53,208 nt of DNA, taken from IMG/VR virus record IMGVR_UViG_2671181011_000016; one strand, 5' to 3'. The notes under the pieces were generated by a model. It saw only the letters and a program-made list of their open reading frames with translations, was not told the DNA's origin and made no database searches. The translations under genes were made by a program, and so were the position numbers. Numbering within the stretch: the stretch's first letter is position 1; every line of letters begins with the position of its first letter. The DNA is from a virus. Taxonomy: Duplodnaviria > Heunggongvirae > Uroviricota > Caudoviricetes. This document shows positions 2,718-36,781 of the stretch, one piece after another.

Positions 2718-5700
2718 ATCCTGAGAATGAACCAGAACCGCGCGACACAATGACGGTCGGCGAGTTTATATATGCACCCCTACTATTTTGAGCGGATACC
2801 CTGATTTTAACCGTAACGCCCCTGCTAGTTACCGATGATGAGTGCATAACAAGGCGCTCGTCGCCATTCATAGACAGACTTTTCTCTGAACTGCCGATGA
2901 TTATCGTACAACCACCAAAACCTTTAACGTTTGCCATGACGCAAATATGTCTGCTGTGCGCTGCATTAGATGTGTCATTGTATGTGATTGTTTTTTCCAG
3001 TACTCCATCGGCTAACCTGCTGACGTCGGATCCTGTGTACATGTTCGCAACGTCACCTATAAAGGTTTTAGCCTCAAGTGAACCAGAAAATTTACCGCTA
3101 CTGGCGTGCACTTCACCTCTAACAACAACATTGTTAAATTCAGATGATCCGTCTTTTGTTATCCTCCAACCATTCGAACCAGCGACATAGTTTGATGATT
3201 TTATTTCATTAACAATTTTAGCCATAGTAATGGCTGCATCCGCAATTTTAGCTGTCCCTATTGATGCATTTTTAATAAACGCTTCTTTCACATACATTGC
3301 ACCGTTAGACACATAGAAAGGCGTTGTATATGTGCCGTTTGCTGCAGTCATCAATACGAAGCGGTCAACAAGGAAAATACACTGCGATTGAACGTTAGTA
3401 CCGTTGCCAGTCAGCCCAAGTGACATACCTGTTGCGTACTTCATGCCGTTGTTGTCGGTTGCCAGCTTGATAGAGTACGTCGCATCAACATTACCCTTGA
3501 AGTCGGTTAACGCTTTTGACGTCGTTTCTATTGCTGTTGTGTTCCCGTTAACGGTCACTGTTAGTTGATCGATCTTGCTTGATAGTGCCTCGTCAGCCGT
3601 TGCCATAGCCTGTGACCATTCTGTAATGCTTGAGTTTACAGAATCGAAAGACGCTGAGATCTGGCCGAATTTTTCCGCGCTTGATGCCTCATGCGTAGAA
3701 AGCGCCGTTGATACCTCAGACACCTTCGAGTTTATCGTGCTGGTAAGCGATGAGTTAAGGCTACTTATCGCGTCAGTGCGTGCCTTCGTTTCGTCTGCAA
3801 TTGCCTTGTCAATACGGGTCACGTTGCTTGTAACTTTGCCATCAAGGGTTGAAATTGACGCATTCACGCCGCTGATGGCTTGTGCTCTGGCACTGGCCTC
3901 GTCAGCAATTGCCTGGTCCAGTCTGCTAACTTCGGATTCAGTGTTGCTTTCAAGCGTGTTGATGCTTGCGTTCACACCGCTGATAGCCTCACTTCTTGCG
4001 CTGGTTTCGTCAGCGATTGCCTGGTCTAAGCGCTTAACGCTGGCGGCGGTTTTCTTGTCGAGCGCTGAAATGCTTGCGTTAACGTCGCTTACCGCCTCGC
4101 TGCGTGCGCTGGTTTCGTCAGCGATGGCCTTGTCAAGTCGTGAAACGCTGGCGTTTGTGTTACTTTCGAGCGTTGTTAAATCAGCTTTGACCTCTGTTAT
4201 TGCGTCGCTTCTTGCCTGCGTTTCGTCAGATATTGCCTTATCGAGTCTGCTCACGCTGGCGTCGGTTTTGCTTTCAAGATTGCTTATTGAGGCATTAACG
4301 CCGCTGATTGCCTGCGCACGGGCGCTTGATTCGTCAGCGATTGCTTGATCAAGGCGGTTCACGCTGGCGTCAGTTTTCTTGTCAAGATCAGCGATCGATG
4401 CGTTCACGTTATTAATTGCTTCTGCGCGGGCGCTTGATTCGTCTGCCACTGCGCGTTCCACGCTGGAGATCTGACCCTTAAGGTTGGAATCCATCGTGTT
4501 CATTTCTGCCGTGATGGTTTTCAGCGATTCAGCCGTGGCCCGCTTCTCTTCGGCAATAACGTTGTCGATGCGGTCAATCTGCGCGTTTGTTTCTGATTGC
4601 CCTTTCTTGTACTGTGCAGTGAGCGTAACCCGCGTGTTGGTCTGCGCGAGAGAGTTATTAATCAGCGCCAAAGATGCGTTTTGCAGGCTTGCTTTTGCTT
4701 GCGCCAGTTCGCTGTCGATTCTTTCGCTGGATACCTCTAGCGAGTCAATCCTTACCTCATGTTGCCCAATACCATCGGTGTTTTCACCAACCTTTTTATA
4801 AAGATCTTCCGTCTCTTTTTTCAGCGTGTCAGTGTCAGCTTTTATTTCACCTGTTTCTGTGATTAAGCTGTCAGTGTCAGTCCTCAATTCGTCAGTGATG
4901 TTTGTCAGGTTGTCAGTTGCAGTTTTTAGGTTGTCAGTAGCGTTTTTAAGGTCATTTGTGGCGCTTTCGATAAGGTCGGCACGGTCGCCAAGATCTTTAA
5001 TGTCGCCAATCATGTCCTTGAACTGTTCTGACTCCATGACATCCTTCATCACGTAGTCGCTGATTTCGTCGAAGTTTTCAGTCGGTTTTCCTGATGCCTC
5101 AACGAAGTCTGACACACCGAAAGCGTTACGCGTGCGCACATAAACGTAATATTTATGGCCCGTGTTCATGCCGCCGAAAGTCCATTGGTAGCCGCGCCCG
5201 GTGAATTGCGCCAAAGTTGTTACTTTTGACGGGTCAGTGATCTGATTTTCACCTGAGTAGTAAAACTCATATGCTGTATCAGTTGTCAGGGTTGTTTTGC
5301 TGATCGGATACACTGTTGCCTGGAAAACGCCAGGAACCCAATTAACACCAATCGGGGCGGCTGGCGCACCAATGACCAGATCCACAATACTTTCCGCACC
5401 CTTCATGCCAGTGTCATTACGCCCGCGAATACCAAGCGTGTAGCTGCCAGCGTCGAGGCCATAAAAATCATAGCGGTAGTTCGTGGTTTCATCAGTTGCC
5501 ACTACACGCCCATCGGCGTTATATACGCGAATTTCAAAGGTCAGGCGATGCGTTGTTGTCTGTGTTTCCCACGTTGCGCGACATTGAACAGTTTCAGAAC
5601 CAACATTTAACACCTTCAGGTTTTCGATGTTCGGCACGCGGAAGTGATTAAGCGTGTCGTTGTTTACCTCGAAGATTGCGCCTTCATCAACTACAGCCTG

Positions 5701-27202: not shown

Positions 27203-27480
27203 CAGAATATTCCTCTATCCTGAAAAATATAACCCCCGCAAAACAGGACACCGCAGGGAGTGAAAACAGCTATAAAACACTAAAAACGGCGCTGCATGAG
27301 TACCGTTTTCAGAATTTTATAAAACTGGATAATGGCGCTTTCTTCTACCCAGGTAGCGCCGGACCTGTTAATGAGATTGTTTACCCGGTATTACGTGTTT
27401 TTGAATTTCCGCCGTCGCTCGCGGGAAGGATTGGCCCGGTTATGGCTGGCTGGTAGAAACGGCGACACGTCCGCGCGCTG

Positions 27481-28430: not shown

Positions 28431-28631
28431 TTACTTATTCCCCATTCGCGCGTCGTGTTCCTCTTGCGCTCGCTTGTTCTCCTGTGATTTGAAGTAATAA
28501 TTAACGGCAAATGTGCCTACGGTTGATAAGATACCCACAAAGACGGCAATGTCATTGATGGTTATCGCGCCGAAAAAAGCAGTTACGGCCCCAGTCACAT
28601 ACGCACACGCCTCCCGTATTCTGTCGAACAT
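28431..28631 (-). CDS. holin (pinholin-like, two TM domains)
   Basis: 66 aa; two hydrophobic segments and charged C-terminus; resembles phage 21 S-type pinholin; paired with a SAR endolysin; RBS GGAGGA. Confidence 0.8.
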   Translation of the reverse strand: MFDRIREACAYVTGAVTAFFGAITINDIAVFVGILSTVGTFAVNYYFKSQENKRAQEEHDARMGNK

Positions 28632-28643
28632 AGATTTTCCTCC

Positions 28644-28673
28644 AACAAAACAAAAACCCGGCGCGGGGCCGGG
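28644..28673 (-). terminator. intrinsic terminator immediately upstream of the holin gene (tR'-like)
   Basis: minus-strand hairpin CCCGGCCCCGCGCCGGG followed by TTTTTGTTTTGTT, about 10 nt before the holin RBS. Confidence 0.7.
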
Positions 28674-28701
28674 TAGTTACAGTTTCGCATTGTTAGGTAA
28701 T

Positions 28702-28730
28702 ATTTTAATCTGTTTGTTTTCGACCCACAA
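28702..28730 (-). promoter_or_regulatory. candidate late promoter (pR'-like)
   Basis: minus strand -35 TTGTGG, 17-bp spacer, -10 TAAAAT, 25-40 nt upstream of the terminator hairpin. Confidence 0.45.
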
Positions 28731-28738
28731 ATACGGCT

Positions 28739-28966
28739 TTAACGGTAAGGGCCAAGCAAACGAACAAGCCATTCTTTGTATTTGGCGGCGACGTGTTTCG
28801 GTGCAAAATATCCTTGCACTTCCTTACCGCCTCGCCACTCCCTTCTAAATTCGCATTCGTTTTGATACCCCTTTCCGCTTTTACTATCCAGCCAGCAAGC
28901 AGGCGAGTAACCTTTTTCACTCCCGAACCGATGCCATATTAATGACAGCAAAATCATTTCTTCCAT
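28739..28966 (-). CDS. hypothetical protein
   Basis: 75 aa ORF; stop codon begins the 18-bp duplicated junction element. Confidence 0.45.
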   Translation of the reverse strand: MEEMILLSLIWHRFGSEKGYSPACWLDSKSGKGYQNECEFRREWRGGKEVQGYFAPKHVAAKYKEWLVRLLGPYR

Positions 28967-28987
28967 ACTGCCCCCACAAATACGGCT

Positions 28988-29164
28988 TTACCGCTTCCTG
29001 TATATCAGGCCATTATCAAGCAGCATTTGCATGTGCCAACGATCCACCATGCTTGATTCCCAGCATTTATTCTCTGGATACTGAATCATCACCTTATCAC
29101 CTTTAACCAAATAGGCGATATTAAATAACATGTGCAAATAAATACCGTCTTCGATCTCGTTCAT
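28988..29164 (-). CDS. hypothetical protein
   Basis: 58 aa; ATGA overlap with upstream gene; stop codon begins the second copy of the 18-bp element. Confidence 0.4.
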   Translation of the reverse strand: MNEIEDGIYLHMLFNIAYLVKGDKVMIQYPENKCWESSMVDRWHMQMLLDNGLIYRKR

Positions 29165-29391
29165 AGCTCGCCAACCTTTACCAGTTCACCAGCATCAAGA
29201 AATATTTTAATTGTTTCTCGCGTCGTCTTAATGATTGGTGCTACCCACTCGCCACCGCCAACACGGATACGAATATCATCACCTTCCACGCGGTAAAACA
29301 GCCTGTCGACTACTGTTGCTGCGTACACGCCATCTTCAATCATTTTTGCGCTCCTTAATGGCTCGCATGATGTTAATACGCATAGCGTCAC
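29161..29391 (-). CDS. hypothetical protein
   Basis: 76 aa ORF in a tightly packed series. Confidence 0.4.
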   Translation of the reverse strand: MTLCVLTSCEPLRSAKMIEDGVYAATVVDRLFYRVEGDDIRIRVGGGEWVAPIIKTTRETIKIFLDAGELVKVGEL

Positions 29392-29578
29392 TGAATGCGT
29401 ATATAGTAATGAAAGGCCAGAAGACTAGCTCGAACCAAATAATGCCGTCACTATCAACAGCTTTCTGAAAAGCGCCCATTAAAATGACGCCAGCCAGGTA
29501 AATGATAACTACCGCAATAATAAGGCATTCAATCATAATCATCCTCATCGTCTTCATGTTCAGCCAGGAACTCATCAA
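29336..29578 (-). CDS. hypothetical membrane protein
   Basis: 80 aa (start uncertain); two hydrophobic segments. Confidence 0.4.
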   Translation of the reverse strand: MMSSWLNMKTMRMIMIECLIIAVVIIYLAGVILMGAFQKAVDSDGIIWFELVFWPFITIYAFSDAMRINIMRAIKERKND

Positions 29579-29843
29579 CCACGCGGCAAGTCACTGGCGG
29601 GATGTATTCGAAATCATCAGAATCGAGATCAAGCGTCCGGCTGTCGCCGTCATCGTCCAGCGTATTCATCCCTAATTCACCGAAAGGGCCGTACCCAATA
29701 CAGCCCAGGTATTCGCATCCAGTAGTAAAGCCAGGGTATTCGCCTTTACAACGGATTTTGTAAGGTCTATTTGATGCGCTCAATTTTTGATGCTCCGCTT
29801 TCTTCTTCAGTAATTTTGTACTCTGCCACCAGTTCCGCACCAA
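29529..29843 (-). CDS. hypothetical protein
   Basis: 104 aa ORF; acidic C-terminus; start uncertain. Confidence 0.4.
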   Translation of the reverse strand: MVRNWWQSTKLLKKKAEHQKLSASNRPYKIRCKGEYPGFTTGCEYLGCIGYGPFGELGMNTLDDDGDSRTLDLDSDDFEYIPPVTCRVVDEFLAEHEDDEDDYD

Positions 29844-30090
29844 GCAATTTCACTTCAGCATCAGGGTAAGGATTAAGTACCAGTGATGCGAAAACAAAAT
29901 GTCTGACGTGATTCACATTATCAAGGTCTTTCACGTCAAAAGGCGGCTCAGTTAAGTGGAAGCATTTAACGTGCGCATCGTCTTCAGTAGCCACACGGAA
30001 ACATGCGCCACGCTCACCTGCGAATTGTCCAAAGTCTTTATTTTCTGGAAAAGATCCACGGAAAACTTTAACGCTGATAAATTTAGACAT
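29767..30090 (-). CDS. hypothetical protein
   Basis: 107 aa ORF. Confidence 0.4.
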   Translation of the reverse strand: MSKFISVKVFRGSFPENKDFGQFAGERGACFRVATEDDAHVKCFHLTEPPFDVKDLDNVNHVRHFVFASLVLNPYPDAEVKLLGAELVAEYKITEEESGASKIERIK

Positions 30091-30093
30091 TGT

Positions 30094-30348
30094 TTATTCT
30101 CCTTCATAAAGCACAGTAACCAGTTCAGCATCAATTAGCGTGTTATGATCTGTATAAAACCCGTGGCGCAGAATTGAGGCAAGGCCGGCCACTTTACGCC
30201 ACATAGGGGTCGATTCGTTCAGATATTCTTTCTCCCTTTTTTCGCTGTATACCAATTCATAAAACCGACCACGATTAACATCTTCAATCACGCGGATATA
30301 TTTACCATCAAATCGGCTATTACCGCGCCATAGTCTGATCACAACCAT
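30094..30348 (-). CDS. hypothetical protein
   Basis: 84 aa ORF. Confidence 0.4.
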   Translation of the reverse strand: MVVIRLWRGNSRFDGKYIRVIEDVNRGRFYELVYSEKREKEYLNESTPMWRKVAGLASILRHGFYTDHNTLIDAELVTVLYEGE

Positions 30349-30350
30349 AA

Positions 30351-30650
30351 TTAAAACTCCGCACCAGGTAAGCTACGCGCTTTGTTTACCGCATCGTGCT
30401 TTAACGATAAACTTGCGTAATAATTCATAATCCCCATATTACCGACTGGTATTTCATTATTTTCTGCCTTTATTCTTAATAACTGGTTTTTAGTGAAAAT
30501 CCTGTCTCCATCGGTGATATATAACCAGTCGCAGCGCTTACCAACTACAACATGAGATCTGCCTAAACTGTCTTTAAATTCATAATTGCAGAAGACATCA
30601 CCTTTAGGCACTTCAACAAAACAGCACGCTATGAATTTATCGCTTTTCAT
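30351..30650 (-). CDS. hypothetical protein
   Basis: 99 aa ORF. Confidence 0.4.
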   Translation of the reverse strand: MKSDKFIACCFVEVPKGDVFCNYEFKDSLGRSHVVVGKRCDWLYITDGDRIFTKNQLLRIKAENNEIPVGNMGIMNYYASLSLKHDAVNKARSLPGAEF

Positions 30651-30691
30651 GATTCAACCCTTCTGGTTTGATTGGCCATCCGGCCCCGCGC

Positions 30692-30832
30692 TTATCCTTC
30701 TTTGCCTCCTTTGAACCCCAGACACTCCGCGTATTCGTCAATGCTTAATGCTTCTTCACCTGGTGCCAGTAGTTCGAAGTATCTGGCATATAACTCAAAC
30801 ACCCAGGCAGGATATTTTGCGTTTGCGTTCAT
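30692..30832 (-). CDS. hypothetical small protein
   Basis: 46 aa from ATG with RBS GGGAGG (MNANAKYPAW...); first gene downstream of the 30865-30908 promoter. Confidence 0.45.
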   Translation of the reverse strand: MNANAKYPAWVFELYARYFELLAPGEEALSIDEYAECLGFKGGKEG

Positions 30833-30864
30833 CTTCTTGCCTCCCATCCGCCTTTCTGTGCCCA

Positions 30865-30908
30865 TATATAACAAAACGGCACTGCCGTAACAATGCCATT
30901 TTGTATAC
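30865..30908 (-). promoter_or_regulatory. sigma70-like promoter with upstream GTATACAAAATGG motif
   Basis: minus strand: motif (30896-30908), -35 TTGTTA, 17-bp spacer, -10 TATATA (30865-30870). Confidence 0.55.
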
Positions 30909-30916
30909 TTTGTGAT

Positions 30917-31740
30917 TCAGATCACGTTATTATCACAAGCGAAAGCCTCGCAACTTTCAGAACAACTACCTGAATCAAACTCTTTCTTGTTAATAATGCT
31001 GCTGCGTATCTCTTCTGTTTCCTCCAGCCTGAACATTGCTATTACGTCCTGCAATGCCATTTTGTTGCGATACATTTCCGGCTTACCTTCCTTGCAATCA
31101 TGTTCTGCAATGCAACTACAAAACTGGTCATATAGTTCAGGTTCATCCCTTGCTGCCAATGCCAACTTCTTGTTGCTCTTCTTAATGCAGAAAACACAAT
31201 TACCAAGATGTTCGGGGATCTCTAAATCAAATGACTGCCCTGACCACCAATCAATAATATCCTGCTTCTCAAAGTCACTTATATCTGCCAGATAGTGAAA
31301 ACCCTCCCTTTCGTGTAGTCTGCGTGGCTCATCTGCCCTAATACCTAACCAGCGTTCATAATTGCCTTTGCCATAGTGTTCATCACAATACTTTTCAAAA
31401 GGTAGTTGTTTCATCCTGTGAGTACAGAATGCCCCGCCGATATAAGGATGGCCATAATGTTCCAGGATTCTCCGCCACGGAACAAGGTCACATCTTATAT
31501 CATCAATACCAATGATCTCGTAACTGAATTTACCGTATTTAATTGCAGGAGGAACGCAGCGGAGGCAAGTTATTTTAATGTTAAAATGTGAGGATAAATT
31601 CTTTATGAACTCGTATGTTTTAGGGTGTTCACCCCTGTATCCATGAAGATAACCTCTGCGTCAGGGTGAATTTTCAATACCTCTAGAGTCATGCAAGCAG
31701 AAGTCCTTCCACCACTGAATGATATTACTTGATGTTTCAT
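30917..31740 (-). pseudogene. PAPS reductase-like (PP-loop ATPase family) gene disrupted by a 1-nt frameshift
   Basis: N-terminal frame MKHQVISFSGGRTSA...FMDTG stops after 45 codons; reading continues in another frame (EHPKTYEFIKN... to 30917); shift lies at a G4 run (31633-31636); a fifth G would restore FMDTGGEHPKTYEF. Confidence 0.65.
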
Positions 31741-31756
31741 AGGCAACAACCTTAAA

Positions 31757-32023
31757 TCAGAAAACCCCTTTATAATCTGCCGTGTATTTTGCCACTAATT
31801 TCCAGTCACAATAGTTTTCCATGTCGCGCGGTTGCCAGCCTCTCATGCCTACAGCACCACGCACGCCGTGGCGACGATAATTATCGTTATAGTCAGCTAC
31901 GCACCATGGCTGAAGTACAAACATATAATTGGCCTCGTTAACCAGGATCGCCATCTGCTTTCCTGTTGCCTTATCTTTCGCCCGGAAATAACTCACCCTG
32001 ATTTTCATTTTTAATAACCTCAA
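31757..32023 (-). CDS. hypothetical protein
   Basis: 88 aa ORF. Confidence 0.4.
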   Translation of the reverse strand: MRLLKMKIRVSYFRAKDKATGKQMAILVNEANYMFVLQPWCVADYNDNYRRHGVRGAVGMRGWQPRDMENYCDWKLVAKYTADYKGVF

Positions 32024-32219
32024 TCAACATTTCTTCTTCCAGGTTGGCAGGACGTTTACGGAACACGCCAGCGAAGACAAGATCTTCCAGTAGGTCTTTA
32101 CTTTTGAATAACCACTCTTTCATTACTATCCCGTCATCACTGCGATATACGACGCCGTTTTTAATAAAATAAAAAGTACGGGTGTTTGTCTGGAGGTATA
32201 GATCTTCGTAAACATCCAT
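31971..32219 (-). CDS. hypothetical protein
   Basis: 82 aa ORF; start uncertain. Confidence 0.35.
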   Translation of the reverse strand: MDVYEDLYLQTNTRTFYFIKNGVVYRSDDGIVMKEWLFKSKDLLEDLVFAGVFRKRPANLEEEMLIEVIKNENQGELFPGER

Positions 32220-32223
32220 GATA

Positions 32224-32451
32224 TTAACCCTCGACTACTTGCAGCCCGCGCCCCTTGTCGCCGACGAAGTCTGCCAGGCTGAACGTATACGACCATGCCG
32301 GATTAATGTAATGGTCATCAGCGCCAGCGGCAATTAGGTCAGCACCGTTAATCACGCAAGTTACATCATCACTATGAACGACGTTAACCACCTTACCAAC
32401 AACCTGTTTCAGTGACGGATAACCGTGATCGTGCAAGAATTTTACTTTCAT
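32224..32451 (-). CDS. hypothetical protein
   Basis: 75 aa ORF. Confidence 0.4.
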   Translation of the reverse strand: MKVKFLHDHGYPSLKQVVGKVVNVVHSDDVTCVINGADLIAAGADDHYINPAWSYTFSLADFVGDKGRGLQVVEG

Positions 32452-32726
32452 TAATCTGTCTCCCAGCGTTCAATGCTGATTAAGAAGTCACGGATAGCAT
32501 GGCGTTCGTCGCGCGTTGGTTTACGTTTCCGGTAGATCCTGAAATCGAACCATTCTTTTTCCTGCTCAAAATCCAGGTCGTAAGCAAGCGCCTCAATGTA
32601 TCCGCATTCGTGATACCAGTACGCAACGCCAGCACGAACAAAAAAGCGGGTTTTATCCCGCTTGTGCTCATAGATACGCATATTCACCCCGTTATGCAAT
32701 TGTGTAGCTGTCAACCAGCTTTTCAT
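32451..32726 (-). CDS. hypothetical protein
   Basis: 91 aa ORF. Confidence 0.4.
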   Translation of the reverse strand: MKSWLTATQLHNGVNMRIYEHKRDKTRFFVRAGVAYWYHECGYIEALAYDLDFEQEKEWFDFRIYRKRKPTRDERHAIRDFLISIERWETD

Positions 32727-32922
32727 CTTTCATTCTGGCAAGCTGTGCGATGTTCATCGTGTAGCCACCTTCTAAGAAAAACCACTCCGCAGTCCTGCGA
32801 CGAAAAGCAATATCATCATAGTGATGCGTCCATGTAATAATCGCCACGCGTTTTCCATCAGTGGCGAACATAGATAACGCATTATCAACAACGTCGATAG
32901 CCTGCCAGATTTTTAATTCCAT
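32692..32922 (-). CDS. hypothetical protein
   Basis: 76 aa ORF. Confidence 0.35.
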   Translation of the reverse strand: MELKIWQAIDVVDNALSMFATDGKRVAIITWTHHYDDIAFRRRTAEWFFLEGGYTMNIAQLARMKDEKLVDSYTIA

Positions 32923-33278
32923 GATTTATCCCCGTAGATCTTGAATAGTTCACACGCTTCCTGATTTTCAAATATATTCATATGCAGGTCACGCAGGCGG
33001 CGCATTGTGCGGAAGCGCGGCCTGAACTCCTGGCTACGTTTAATGTATTTGCCGCCAATTGAATAAATATGCCCGTATGCGTACCATCTGTTACCTACCC
33101 ATATATCATATTCTTTGCCTTCGTAATTAAATTTTATCGTTAGCTCGCCAACCTCAACTATTAACCCTTTGTCAATAATGTCATTAAGCATTTCGTCCCA
33201 TTCTTTGAGGAATGGTTGTTGATAAAAACCAAAAAGCGTATTTACAGCATGGCAGAGATAGTCAATGATTATTTGCAT
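32913..33278 (-). CDS. hypothetical protein
   Basis: 121 aa ORF. Confidence 0.4.
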   Translation of the reverse strand: MQIIIDYLCHAVNTLFGFYQQPFLKEWDEMLNDIIDKGLIVEVGELTIKFNYEGKEYDIWVGNRWYAYGHIYSIGGKYIKRSQEFRPRFRTMRRLRDLHMNIFENQEACELFKIYGDKSWN

Positions 33279-33282
33279 ATTA

Positions 33283-33495
33283 TTACCACATCATATAATA
33301 AACGTTCTCGTCAGCTAACATGTCAGCCACATCCTGCGTCATGTGTCTGGCCTCAAGGAAAAAATCCTCACTATGCCATTCCCTCACAAGCATACGCGCC
33401 CATTTACGGCGCTGGCGTTTATTACGTCGCAGATCATCAAAAGCCTTTAATGCTTTGTCGTATGCCCTTACAAGGCGCTTACGGTTACTTTTCAT
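33283..33495 (-). CDS. small basic protein, tandem paralog 1
   Basis: 70 aa; MKSNRKRLVRAYDKALKAFDDLRRNKRQRRKWAR...; about half of the first 40 residues are identical to the adjacent gene. Confidence 0.5.
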   Translation of the reverse strand: MKSNRKRLVRAYDKALKAFDDLRRNKRQRRKWARMLVREWHSEDFFLEARHMTQDVADMLADENVYYMMW

Positions 33496-33507
33496 TTTTC
33501 ACCCCAA

Positions 33508-33696
33508 TTAACCAAATAAATCCTCAGCAACAACATCATAAGCCTGATCAGCGGTTAATTTAGTATCACCAAAATTCCATTCCTTTGCTAATTTCCTGGC
33601 TATTCGTCTTCTCTTGCGCTTATTGTTTTTCAGGTCGTCAAAATAACACAAACATTTATCATACGCCCTTACAAGGCGCTTAAGGTTACTTTTCAT
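33508..33696 (-). CDS. small basic protein, tandem paralog 2
   Basis: 62 aa; MKSNLKRLVRAYDKCLCYFDDLKNNKRKRRRIAR... Confidence 0.5.
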   Translation of the reverse strand: MKSNLKRLVRAYDKCLCYFDDLKNNKRKRRRIARKLAKEWNFGDTKLTADQAYDVVAEDLFG

Positions 33697-33699
33697 ATT

Positions 33700-33999
33700 T
33701 TAAAACCTATATTGCCAATAAATATCGCAGTGGATAGCGAAAACCTTAACAGGTTCGTCACCAAACAAAGGATGCTGAATCGTCTTTATTGTGTACCCCA
33801 TGTAAGGGAGAATAAGAATCCGCTTCTTATCGTCGTTTGCAGGGTATCCCAATTTAAGAATCAATCTTGTGTAGTCGCGTCCCTCCAGACGTTTTCGCCA
33901 ATAGTCATTATAAAGCCGGTATTCCTCCACCTTCTTTCCCGCGCGTATGGCGTGGAAGTATTCACCTTTTAAATTCAAATGTAAGTGTTTATTTGCCAT
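33700..33999 (-). CDS. ASCH / DUF3850-like (PUA-fold) protein
   Basis: 99 aa from MANKHLHLNLKGEYFHAIRAGKKVEEYR, a pattern typical of ASCH-type domains; track ORF extends to 34035. Confidence 0.45.
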   Translation of the reverse strand: MANKHLHLNLKGEYFHAIRAGKKVEEYRLYNDYWRKRLEGRDYTRLILKLGYPANDDKKRILILPYMGYTIKTIQHPLFGDEPVKVFAIHCDIYWQYRF

Positions 34000-34321
34000 C
34001 GCTATGATCCTGTAAACAGTCGTTATAGCCTTCAATGTATCCAGTTATCCCAGTGTTGCTAACTGACCAATCAGCCGAACGGCGTTTGATGGCCTTGTCC
34101 ATAGTCATAGCGTCAACCGGATCTGTTAGGTCTATATATTTCCGCAATTCTGTAACTATTACCGCCCTTAATTGTTGTGCATTTGAGTACGTCCTTGCTT
34201 TGTCAGTTATTCCGTTTACAAGCTCCCTAAATTCATGATCCTTTAATTTAGGCTTCATTGTCGTTGCTCCGTCCGTAAATATGTACTGGCTCAACTGGCA
34301 CGGCTGGCAATTCACCATCAT
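33989..34321 (-). CDS. hypothetical protein
   Basis: 110 aa ORF; true start probably an internal Met (MKPKLKDHEF...). Confidence 0.35.
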   Translation of the reverse strand: MMVNCQPCQLSQYIFTDGATTMKPKLKDHEFRELVNGITDKARTYSNAQQLRAVIVTELRKYIDLTDPVDAMTMDKAIKRRSADWSVSNTGITGYIEGYNDCLQDHSDGK

Positions 34322-34448
34322 TTAACGCGCTTGCCATACCCAATATCAATCGCGCTTCTGCACCAGTGACTTTCTTACACCATGCACCGCCCGTTTTATC
34401 TTCGAACAAGATAACGGCAAACTTATCGTTTATTTCCAGCTTATCCAT
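34248..34448 (-). CDS. hypothetical protein
   Basis: 66 aa ORF. Confidence 0.35.
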   Translation of the reverse strand: MDKLEINDKFAVILFEDKTGGAWCKKVTGAEARLILGMASALNDGELPAVPVEPVHIYGRSNDNEA

Positions 34449-35170
34449 TATTCACCCCGCGTCACTCGTTTAATTTCGTTATCTGCCCGCGCCTCTTCTT
34501 TGAACAATTCAGCAATGGCGTCTTCATAGAAAACCCGGTATTTCTTCCACCATGTTGATCGGCTTACCGGAAAAACAAGCTGATTAACCGCCTGCCGGAC
34601 AAGATCTACAGGGAAACGCGAGTACCCGCGCCCGCCGCAGTGATGGCACGTTTTGAACACTGGCATTTCCGCCGCTTCACTGGCTGCTTTATCCGGTACT
34701 TCGCCACGACCCTTGCATTGTTTACAATGATTGCGAACTGTCCCATGCCCCTTGCATTTTTTGCAAAGGTGTTTTTCTCCGTATTCGTCAAACGTAAATT
34801 TATATCCGCCGCACTCCACGCAAGTTTTTTCCGTCGCGGCACTCTGGCAATAATCCCGAAACGCGAAAACGGCAACAAGAATAATGAGATCATTGCGTTT
34901 GGCCTCGTCCAGTTCCATAACGTATTCATAATCTTTTGCCATAGCCCTTAAACGCTCTGTAAGCAAAACTACGGCCTTATGTTTTTCTGCTTGTGATAGT
35001 TCCATCTTCCCTAAAAAAGCACTGTAACCAAGCTCTACGCGCGATTGCGCCATACCTGCGGCAGTTAGTGCATCCGTAGTATTAAGCGCATCCGGGGACG
35101 TGCCCCGGCTTTCATCTGATAAACGCGGCGATTTTGGGAAGTGGAATTTTAGAATTGATTCCAAATTCAT
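34448..35170 (-). CDS. zinc-finger protein with four CxxCxGxG repeats; possible antiterminator Q (phage 82/21 type)
   Basis: 240 aa; CVECGGYK, CKKCKGHG, CKQCKGRG, CHHCGGRG; lies downstream of ninG/rusA as Q does in lambdoid phages; Q assignment is positional. Confidence 0.4.
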   Translation of the reverse strand: MNLESILKFHFPKSPRLSDESRGTSPDALNTTDALTAAGMAQSRVELGYSAFLGKMELSQAEKHKAVVLLTERLRAMAKDYEYVMELDEAKRNDLIILVAVFAFRDYCQSAATEKTCVECGGYKFTFDEYGEKHLCKKCKGHGTVRNHCKQCKGRGEVPDKAASEAAEMPVFKTCHHCGGRGYSRFPVDLVRQAVNQLVFPVSRSTWWKKYRVFYEDAIAELFKEEARADNEIKRVTRGE

Positions 35171-35352: not shown

Positions 35353-35618
35353 TTCTCTACCACCTTAAACCTAGTTTTAAAATTACCCTGCAAGAAATAC
35401 TCATTGCTTGATGGAAAATACTGGACTAATCGCCATGCGTCTGCTTCATCGAAATCAGATACAAGATCGTCTTGCAAAATGAAGGCAAAGCATCCGTGCT
35501 TTATAAAACCAGAATATTTTTTACCTTCCGTGAAAAAATCGACGCTTGATTGAATACATTTAACAACAATGTTTATTTGTTCCATTGTCACCCCACATAT
35601 TAGTTTCGTATTCACCAA
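35349..35618 (-). CDS. hypothetical protein
   Basis: 89 aa ORF; start uncertain, overlaps the rusA 3' end. Confidence 0.35.
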   Translation of the reverse strand: MVNTKLICGVTMEQINIVVKCIQSSVDFFTEGKKYSGFIKHGCFAFILQDDLVSDFDEADAWRLVQYFPSSNEYFLQGNFKTRFKVVEK

Positions 35619-35988
35619 TATCCGGTAACAGGTCGCCGCGTTCGCGAACTTTAATAAACAATCGCCCGCCTTTTACCTTCCGGCAGCGAACAATTTTTAT
35701 TGCGTCGATTTGTCCGTCATCCTTCCAGAACTCTGCATAAGTAAGACTATCAAAAAGGCATTTAGGGATATTATCCAGATCCCTGGTTCGGTTATCCGGC
35801 GGCGCAACATGAATGGTAATTGCCAGTCGGCAAGATAGGTTGATGTTTAAATTTAATAGCTCGATGATGTCTCTTACCTGCTCCCGGTACTCTTTCCCAA
35901 CCTTGCTGATATAGTGAAAACCTCGTGAATGTCGGTAATAGCGGTTATTCGATGGTGGGTAAGGCAGACTAAATGTATATTCGTTCAT
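35560..35988 (-). CDS. rusA: Holliday junction resolvase RusA
   Basis: N-terminus MNEYTFSLPYPPSNNRYYRH and RDLDN..K..FD.LT motifs match RusA by eye. Confidence 0.8.
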   Translation of the reverse strand: MNEYTFSLPYPPSNNRYYRHSRGFHYISKVGKEYREQVRDIIELLNLNINLSCRLAITIHVAPPDNRTRDLDNIPKCLFDSLTYAEFWKDDGQIDAIKIVRCRKVKGGRLFIKVRERGDLLPDIGEYETNMWGDNGTNKHCC

Positions 35989-36590
35989 GCTGCCTTTCTC
36001 CTTAAGGCGTCTAATTTAGCCTGATAGACTTTTATGATTTCCTTACATTCTTCTATCGTCCATTTGTGAGTTTCGTTGTTGTTCTCCAGAGCTACCACCC
36101 TGGCGAGGCCAATTTTTCGAATCAGCGCCGGGCGATACCCTCCGATGTTGCCGTCTAGTGTCTGGTTGCAGTGCCTGCATTGCTTGTGACAATTATCCTC
36201 GTTGAAACGAAGGTGTCCGGCGGCGGCTACCGTCCTGTAATGGCCTGCATCCCACCCGCATTGCTCACCGTAGTAAGTCCCGCATGATATGCACGGCAAT
36301 CGCGAGTCACGCTCGCGTATATAAGCGTTAAAAACGTTTTGCGCCTGTTTAATCCAGTAGCTACGCGGATTTAACTGCTTCCTCTTCCGGCTGCGCTCTT
36401 CCCGCTGGCTATCACGGCGCTTCTTCCGTTCCATAGCCTTCATAGCCTTCTCACGGTCGCGGCATAACTGGTCAAACTTCAGTTCTTCCAGACATTCATC
36501 GCTGCACCACGTTTGATTATGATATTTAGGCTCAAAAAAAACGCCGCAGCACTTGCAACGGCGTCTTATGGGTTTTTTAGGGTTTTGCAT
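35985..36590 (-). CDS. ninG: recombination protein NinG (Rap)
   Basis: 201 aa from ATG with RBS GGGGTGG; strong by-eye match to lambda NinG (PRSYWIKQAQ, RLPCISCGT, WDAGHYRT, LRFNE.N.HKQC, RWTIEECK). Confidence 0.85.
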   Translation of the reverse strand: MQNPKKPIRRRCKCCGVFFEPKYHNQTWCSDECLEELKFDQLCRDREKAMKAMERKKRRDSQREERSRKRKQLNPRSYWIKQAQNVFNAYIRERDSRLPCISCGTYYGEQCGWDAGHYRTVAAAGHLRFNEDNCHKQCRHCNQTLDGNIGGYRPALIRKIGLARVVALENNNETHKWTIEECKEIIKVYQAKLDALRRKAA

Positions 36591-36604
36591 AAAAACCACC
36601 CCGA

Positions 36605-36781
36605 TTATTTTTGATTCTCTGTTTCGTTCAGCCTTTCGGCGTGTCCGGCCCTTAGCCAATGTTCTAAGCATTCGTTGCACTCGTTACAGCCTCCTTTCTT
36701 CGTGCTGCATACATTGCACATTGCACGCATGACGCTCTCTCGTTCATAGTCGTCATGCCATTGGTAATCATCAAAAGGCAT
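36605..36781 (-). CDS. small Cys-rich (zinc-ribbon-like) protein
   Basis: 58 aa MPFDDYQWHDDYERESVMRAMCNVCSTKKGGCNECNECLEHWL...; RBS AAGGAGAG; not in the supplied ORF track (below cutoff). Confidence 0.45.
   Translation of the reverse strand: MPFDDYQWHDDYERESVMRAMCNVCSTKKGGCNECNECLEHWLRAGHAERLNETENQK

Follow-up and report, generated by a model that had tools for sequence, protein, structure and literature searches.

What kind of protein is encoded at positions 34448..35170 (minus strand, stop codon included) of IMG/VR record IMGVR_UViG_2671181011_000016, a stretch of 53,208 nt of Caudoviricetes DNA that we refer to, at its full length, as the window? The reading frame of 240 codons plus stop lies where a late antiterminator Q is expected, and its product carries cysteine motifs of the sort known from the zinc fingers of DnaJ, which had led the original prediction to leave two options standing: a Q-family antiterminator or a different zinc-binding regulator. 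The frame proved real, and the first option is the right one, as judged by protein family profiles, by homology to phage lambda Q and by a match in fold. Taking the evidence together, the product, hereafter Q, is very probably the late antiterminator of a temperate coliphage of the mEpimmI group and belongs to the lambda-Q family.

A profile search against the Q families, proposed along with the prediction, gave a clear answer. In the Pfam scan, Q matched PF03589 ("Antitermination protein Q") with 101.5 bits (E 2.8e-29) against a gathering cutoff of 26.7, and PHROG 127 ("anti-termination protein Q-like") was matched over residues 1-238 (E 4.9e-78). Searching the sequences of the PDB with phmmer, we obtained lambda Q chains as the only real matches (7ubm_Q, E 5.2e-39). 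An AlphaFold2 model built on a 47-sequence alignment (predicted local distance difference test score, pLDDT, 91.6; predicted template-modelling score, pTM, 0.82) pointed in the same direction, in that Foldseek returned only lambda Q entries of the PDB below E 1. The best of these was 7ubn_Q, the NusA-containing engaged state (E 1.7e-15; template-modelling score 0.78, target-normalised). An affiliation with the Q82 or Q21 type, which had also been contemplated, did not hold up: neither PF06530 (Q21) nor PF06323 (Q82), as the accessions are assigned in PMC9388147, was matched in the Pfam scan at E<=1. Q21 and Q82 have the same biological role as Q and the same type of target, that is, a promoter, a sigma-dependent pause and a terminator, but Q21 differs in fold from lambda Q (PMC9388147), and the difference between Q82 and Q is documented only as absent sequence similarity.

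The correspondence with lambda Q (PF03589; PDB 4MO1, 7UBJ-7UBN) extends over the full length of the protein. In the phmmer alignment, residues 1-114 of Q equal lambda Q 1-114 and residues 148-238 equal lambda 117-207; that the product aligns from residue 1 onward also supports the start codon. Identity amounts to ~57% over residues 1-60, by a hand count from the alignment, compared with ~35-40% overall, and both the torus segment (1-44) and the flap-tip-binding segment (45-60) are collinear between the two proteins. Codons 1-44 (35039..35170, on the minus strand like all parts of the gene given below) correspond in the alignment to the part of lambda Q that refolds into a torus, or nozzle, at the RNA-exit channel; in lambda, residues 1-44 together with NusA form this torus, which narrows the channel and thereby blocks terminator hairpins (PMC9388147). 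The first half of the helical body is encoded by codons 61-114 (34829..34990), which align with lambda 61-114 and form helices 60-80 and 89-107 in the model. The second body half, with the helix-turn-helix and the C-terminal helix, follows at codons 184-240 (34451..34621; aligned with lambda 153-207; helices 188-198 and 204-238). The model thus displays the four-helix body with a helix-turn-helix fold by which the family is recognised. Between the two halves, codons 148-183 (34622..34729) align with the zinc-ribbon arm of lambda Q, with C149, C152, C175 and C178 falling on lambda C118, C121, C144 and C147 at an identical spacing of 26 residues. Among further lambda-equivalent positions, G39, L58 and T237 (lambda T206) are kept, and V6, C53 and H56 of lambda Q are changed to I, L and M, respectively.

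What these parts do in lambda has been described. The body (residues 61-113 plus 153-207) uses its helix-turn-helix to bind the Q binding element at positions 1-4, and the zinc-ribbon arm (114-152) binds positions 11-13; residues 110-112, 117 and 122-126 touch the zinc-binding domain of the beta-prime subunit, and the arm contacts the repositioned region 4 of sigma (PMC9388147). Going by the alignment, all these parts have clear counterparts in Q, such that the N-terminal nozzle-equivalent segment, the helical helix-turn-helix body and the zinc-ribbon arm are established by homology. The high conservation of the N terminus would fit a conserved interaction with Escherichia coli RNA polymerase. 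DNA specificity presumably differs from that of lambda Q, because the overall identity is only ~35-40%.

Relative to lambda Q, Q has an insertion of 33 residues (codons 115-147, 34730..34828) that falls into a gap of the alignment. Its site, flanked by the equivalents of lambda residues 114 and 117, is the base of the arm, adjacent to the residues contacting beta-prime; the model shows it with four short strands (114-116, 125-127, 133-135 and 144-146). The insertion accounts for two of the four cysteine pairs. Q has nine cysteines in all, eight of which are arranged in C-x-x-C pairs: CVECGGYK (pair 1, C117/C120) and CKKCKGHG (pair 2, C136/C139) in the insertion, CKQCKGRG (pair 3, C149/C152) and CHHCGGRG (pair 4, C175/C178) in the lambda-type arm. 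The original prediction had described four evenly spaced CxxCxGxG motifs. Four cysteine pairs are indeed there, but only three conform to the strict motif, the first being CxxCxGxK, and the spacing is not even, with intervals of 19, 13 and 26 residues.

These pairs are more than a chance occurrence, since the eight cysteines show conservation throughout the family. Among 47 aligned, diverse homologues, C175 and C178 were invariant, as were G154 and G180; C136, C139, C149 and C152 were conserved to at least 90%, and C117 plus C120 were present in 42 of the 47 proteins. For a wider view, a search of 1.84 billion cluster representatives yielded 177 matches, and we counted strict C-x-x-C pairs in 74 full-length proteins (195-300 amino acids) pooled from this and an earlier homologue search. 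Four pairs were found in 26 of them and three in another 26, with two pairs in 11, a single pair in 7 and none in 4. In the "three-motif" proteins, the third position is taken by C-x-C, as seen in the curated 47-sequence alignment; once C-x-C is allowed, all four pairs are present in 42/47 proteins and the lambda-type two-pair arm in only 3/47. The four-pair arm is therefore the family norm, and the two-pair arm of lambda Q is a minority, reduced form.

The same comparison suggests which cysteines pair up to bind zinc. CRDCHGTG, the first motif of lambda Q, is similar to motif 3 of the family consensus, and the inter-motif segment of lambda Q aligns with the segment between motifs 3 and 4 of Q. 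Because the lambda motifs align with motifs 3 and 4, one zinc site would be formed by pairs 3 and 4, as solved in lambda, leaving pairs 1 and 2 for the other. On this inference, the zinc topology would be sequential rather than nested as in DnaJ. Residues 115-147 thus most likely constitute a second, predicted zinc site of the Cys4 type, a further small zinc ribbon, placed at the arm's base, that lambda Q does not have. Across the family, the linker from pair 1 to pair 2 has anywhere between 0 and 59 residues (15 in Q), whereas the spacings from 2 to 3 (13 residues) and from 3 to 4 (26 residues) are mostly constant in members with strict C-x-x-C pairs.

Within the mEpimmI group, strong variation in Q is confined to the insertion, the remainder being nearly identical. 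Two alleles exist: a 240-amino-acid type with GGYKFTFD[DE]YGEKHLC, to which the window belongs, and a 242-amino-acid type reading roughly GG[HN]G.LP.PYCEY..T.C. Across 45 IMG/VR loci (L012-L056), they are found 22 and 23 times, respectively, and phages mEp010 and MagusPhagus carry the 242-amino-acid version. A scan for related loci with the single protein turned up close relatives only. The presence of two such sharply different alleles suggests intragenic recombination or selection on this surface.

Genomic context agrees with the assignment. As had been noted, the gene is downstream of ninG and rusA: NinG (PF05766) is encoded at 35985..36680 and RusA (PF05866) at 35560..35988, both upstream of Q on the same minus strand. 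The start codon of Q overlaps the stop codon of a preceding 60-amino-acid open reading frame (ORF), and its own stop codon overlaps the start of the next ORF. Further downstream, again on the same strand, follow genes for a holin (PF16080) and a lysozyme (PF00959). This is the gene order typical of the family, with Q following nin-type recombination genes, as in lambda, and preceding the lysis and late genes. Purifying selection on the gene is strong, the ratio of nonsynonymous to synonymous substitution rates (dN/dS) being 0.01-0.17 relative to seven related phages. As a side observation, the plus strand of the Q gene harbors a promoter-like TCGCCA-16-TACAAT and a GC-rich hairpin, CCGGGGACGTGCCCCGG (34701..34728 and 35092..35108); these antisense elements could recall the lambda paQ antisense transcript, while a chance occurrence within coding sequence is equally possible.

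The window itself is the genome of an mEpimmI-group phage: of a 24-kb stretch, 75-87% can be aligned at ~90% identity with the named phages mEp010, mEp554, mEp044, mEp013, mEp515, mEp021 and MagusPhagus. The Q orthologues of these seven are 85-98% identical, and the synteny is shared, running from NinG and RusA through the 60-amino-acid ORF, Q and a set of small ORFs to a terminator and the holin. Annotation is uneven. The 95% identical gp37 of mEp021 is a "putative late gene regulator Q" and the MagusPhagus orthologue an "anti-termination protein Q-like protein", while five PP18000x records list a "hypothetical protein". Proteins of E. coli prophages with 89-98% identity are named "antitermination protein (Q)" in NCBI and UniRef, a single 90% cluster of homologues comprises 981 sequences, and the precomputed Pfam architecture of the homologues is PF27659 + PF03589 + PF00684. 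The paper on the mEpimmI group mentions a "Q-lambda-like" protein in passing, its focus being on the characterisation of the N-like Gp17 and nut sites (PMC11893012). In this sense, the identity and annotation of Q were already known.

If Q is a lambda-type antiterminator, where does it act? A candidate target is found immediately upstream of the holin gene (28431..28631, minus strand, ATG at 28631; PF16080, E 1.6e-14), which opens the late (lysis) operon and is followed by the phage lysozyme gene (PF00959). Reading along the minus strand, a weak -35-like TTGTGG (28725..28730) is situated 17 nt upstream of a candidate -10 element, TAAAAT (28702..28707). A 7-nt spacer, ATTACCT, separates the latter from a -10-like AACAAT (28689..28694), which would cover approximately +1 to +6 of the late transcript and is a candidate sigma-dependent pause element. 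An intrinsic terminator follows at 28645..28674. The original prediction had cited it at 28644-28673, and it is indeed real: the terminator scan shows a hairpin with a 7-bp GC-rich stem (28674..28656) plus a U tract, with a minimum free energy of -19.3 to -20.4 kcal/mol and a z score of ~-2.8. The hairpin starts ~20 nt past the pause element (~+21), and the Q stop codon is 5.77 kb upstream of the terminator, a candidate tR'. Based on these sequence elements, we propose 28730-28645 as a candidate PR'/pause/tR' unit for the action of Q. A scan of the whole window against Rfam gave no family at threshold.

The layout parallels that of the lambda late promoter. Lambda PR' reads TTGACT, 17 nt, TAAATT, TGACTC and AACGAT, the last being the sigma-dependent pause element at +1 to +6. 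Here, the -10 is TAAAAT instead of TAAATT, the spacer from there to the -10-like element is 7 instead of 6 nt, and AACAAT takes the place of AACGAT. The terminators differ in position, in that the terminated lambda RNA is ~194 nt long compared with a hairpin start at ~+21 in the window.

The module is also conserved. The relatives share it upstream of their holin genes. The -10 element and AACAAT do not vary in 32 related genomes, and the -10 element together with the stretch TAACAATGCGAAA is unchanged in 8 phage sequences and in 24/24 IMG/VR loci, these 24 being the loci with a holin gene inside the fetched flank. Upstream of this core, some relatives have a -35 variant, ATAATCGCGC. According to a hand count in the 8-sequence alignment, ~12% of the columns from the promoter spacer to the holin ATG vary, and 25 columns vary in the module as a whole (113 columns). 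For comparison, 30% of third-codon positions vary in the holin gene and 54% in the Q gene. Variation in the terminator is restricted to the loop, leaving the stem conserved.

Stronger support comes from more distant relatives, which keep the layout even though their DNA is otherwise dissimilar. Locus L009, whose Q is 48% identical and whose synteny is the same, has TATAAT-TCCCTC-AATAAT and a hairpin from ~+24, followed by the holin. A Citrobacter prophage (L057; Q 40% identical) has TTTACA-17-TAATCT-GAAACC-AATGAT with a hairpin from ~+27, here directly after Q. In L058 (Q 38% identical), the arrangement is TATTTT-GGCTCC-AACGATGGGT, the last element being identical to the lambda pause element. 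In this locus, 84 nt (4402..4484) separate Q from the called holin start and AACGATGGGT is ~13 nt before the ATG; no terminator was found between AACGATGGGT and the called holin ATG, which leaves as options that the gene call is off or that the annotated gene includes the terminator.

By analogy with lambda Q, the following sequence of events can be envisaged. Q would be produced from the early rightward transcript and bind the DNA of the late promoter that immediately precedes the holin gene (~28730-28689, minus strand), where it would meet RNA polymerase held by sigma-70 at the -10-like AACAAT. Loading of Q onto the polymerase would narrow the RNA-exit channel; the terminator hairpin (28674-28656), which starts ~20 nt on, could then no longer form, and the polymerase would read on into the genes for lysis, terminase and structural proteins. 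When Q is absent, only an RNA of ~42-48 nt would be expected from the promoter. Two further terminator-like hairpins (26509..26525 and 27234..27248, minus strand) are seen past the lysis genes and ahead of the terminase genes, and mEp021 has an annotated terminator, TERM_6, at the equivalent place; such hairpins fit a late operon in need of a processive antiterminator.

How do other explanations fare? The idea of a DnaJ-like zinc-finger protein, be it chaperone-type, redox-related or another zinc-binding regulator, that merely happens to sit at the Q position draws on some similarities: CxxCxGxG repeats (three strict, one CxxCxGxK), four cysteine pairs, two expected zinc ions, and weak matches to DnaJ cysteine-rich models (PF00684, E 9.3e-6; TIGR02349, E 1.1e-5). 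However, the PF00684 score of 26.3 bits remains below the cutoff of 32.7, NCBIfam DnaJ models give at most 25 bits against cutoffs of >330, and the Pfam scan of Q at E<=1 revealed neither a J domain nor DnaJ C-terminal domains. Q likewise has no G/F region or substrate-binding domain, and its predicted sequential zinc topology (1+2, 3+4) contrasts with the nested one of DnaJ (1+4, 2+3). Most tellingly, Q aligns end to end with lambda Q, whose own zinc-ribbon arm carries two CxxCxGxG motifs; the motif is thus native to the lambda-Q arm, where, by analogy, it would be part of a DNA- and RNA-polymerase-binding device, not of a chaperone. We therefore rejected a kinship with DnaJ, which homology effectively refutes and to which we accord next to no probability. 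A second alternative accepts a genuine lambda-family Q but lets it act elsewhere, either at a promoter in the downstream small-ORF block or with the late genes being reached via Gp17-modified read-through. Several observations weigh against our assignment or speak for this view. The phage group does not conserve the -35, which is weak; the module is 5.75 kb away from the Q gene, with ~5.7 kb of packed ORFs after Q, while in the textbook cassette PR' follows Q directly (PMC9388147); and its conservation is partly confounded by that of the highly conserved holin gene next door. Moreover, a hairpin at ~+21 is far nearer to the pause than lambda tR' at +194, making it questionable whether Q could load in time, and in the group an N-like antiterminator with three nut sites has been characterised by experiment (PMC11893012). 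Yet only two gaps of more than ~50 nt exist between Q and the holin gene, 31415-31756 and 30651-30916, and neither contains a promoter-pause-terminator module; we discarded both as late-promoter sites, as they are occupied by a split PAPS-reductase-like gene and its downstream hairpin. The holin-proximal module is the only one with a lambda-like layout (-10, ~6 nt, -10-like hexamer, strong terminator), it stays put while the distance from Q to the holin varies between 2.0 kb (mEp021) and 6.8 kb among the relatives, and its equivalent directly follows Q in the Citrobacter relative. The concern raised originally, that Q is far from the candidate promoter, is accurate as to distance (~5.7 kb) but carries no weight against a Q, because Q acts in trans on DNA. 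Action at another site appears very unlikely, and we retain the module upstream of the holin gene as the candidate target.

The remaining alternatives leave Q a Q-family antiterminator and concern the insertion. Residues 115-147 might have a function of their own, for instance by adding a contact to promoter DNA, to sigma region 4 or to the zinc-binding domain of beta-prime. Alternatively, they might form a variable surface under diversifying pressure. In favor of such a role, the insertion adjoins the equivalents of lambda residues 110-112, 117 and 122-126, which contact beta-prime (PMC9388147), is rich in Lys, His and Arg, and stands out as the sole strongly variable part of Q, with its alleles split ~50:50. 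On the other hand, a co-variation of the insert allele with the variable upstream part of the promoter, which we looked for among the IMG/VR loci, was not found. The variable linker of 0-59 residues and the fact that lambda Q works without the module further suggest a tolerant, mainly structural element, and we consider a dedicated function or diversifying pressure rather unlikely. A bolder version, in which the two-zinc arm represents a mechanistically distinct mode of lambda-Q loading with the insertion making contacts absent in lambda Q, strikes us as decidedly unlikely. Were it true, the insertion would contact the beta-prime zinc-binding domain, sigma region 4 or the DNA between the halves of the binding element; loading at the compact promoter-pause-terminator unit could then be very fast, and the two alleles would reflect selection at that interface. 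Our preferred reading remains that of a lambda-family late antiterminator whose insertion would form an extra zinc ribbon.

Between Q and the holin gene, ~5.7 kb are filled by tightly packed small ORFs of unknown function. The number of these ORFs differs among the mEpimmI relatives and the block (28632..34447, minus strand) is hypervariable in size; given that range of 2.0 to 6.8 kb, it looks like a variable accessory island, which we infer to be transcribed with the early operon. At its holin-proximal end, an exact 18-nt direct repeat, TAAAGCCGTATTTGTGGG, occurs at 28990..28973 and 28741..28724 (minus strand), its copies flanking a 75-amino-acid ORF (28739..28966; phrog_23715). In seven related phages, the 75-amino-acid ORF is missing from this position, and of the two copies of TAAAGCCGTATTTGTGGG there is just the downstream one. 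We considered and dismissed a regulatory repeat, for the upstream copy is unique to the window and flanks the inserted ORF; the pair looks more like a recombination scar left by an insertion just upstream of the candidate late promoter.

The same island has further notable features. A PAPS-reductase-like gene is apparently split (30917..31740, minus strand) into an N-terminal piece of 45 amino acids with an SFSGGRTS motif (31603..31740) and a C-terminal piece of 165 amino acids (30917..31414), ~190 nt apart. Both pieces match the same PHROG families, and an accessory gene that has suffered a frameshift or is decaying is the probable explanation. Behind the C-terminal piece, at 30888..30866, there is a small hairpin with a T run. 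Closer to Q, two tandem paralogous ORFs (33508..33696, 62 amino acids; 33283..33495, 70 amino acids; minus strand) both match phrog_8758 and start with MKSN.KRLVRAYDK.

What does this mean for the mEpimmI phages, which are reportedly as common as lambdoid phages in human faeces (PMC11893012)? Our analysis settles the identity of Q as their lambda-type late switch, a protein that most deposited genomes of the group label "hypothetical protein", and adds its exact anatomy relative to lambda Q, the recognition that four cysteine pairs are the norm, and a concrete candidate for the late promoter-pause-terminator unit. Lambda Q, the only structurally characterised member of the family, has a two-pair arm, such that conclusions about the arm may not transfer directly to other members. 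In addition, Q and its likely target are split by a variable island of small ORFs, and the candidate unit is unusually compact. Neither point alters the basic picture of Q-dependent antitermination.

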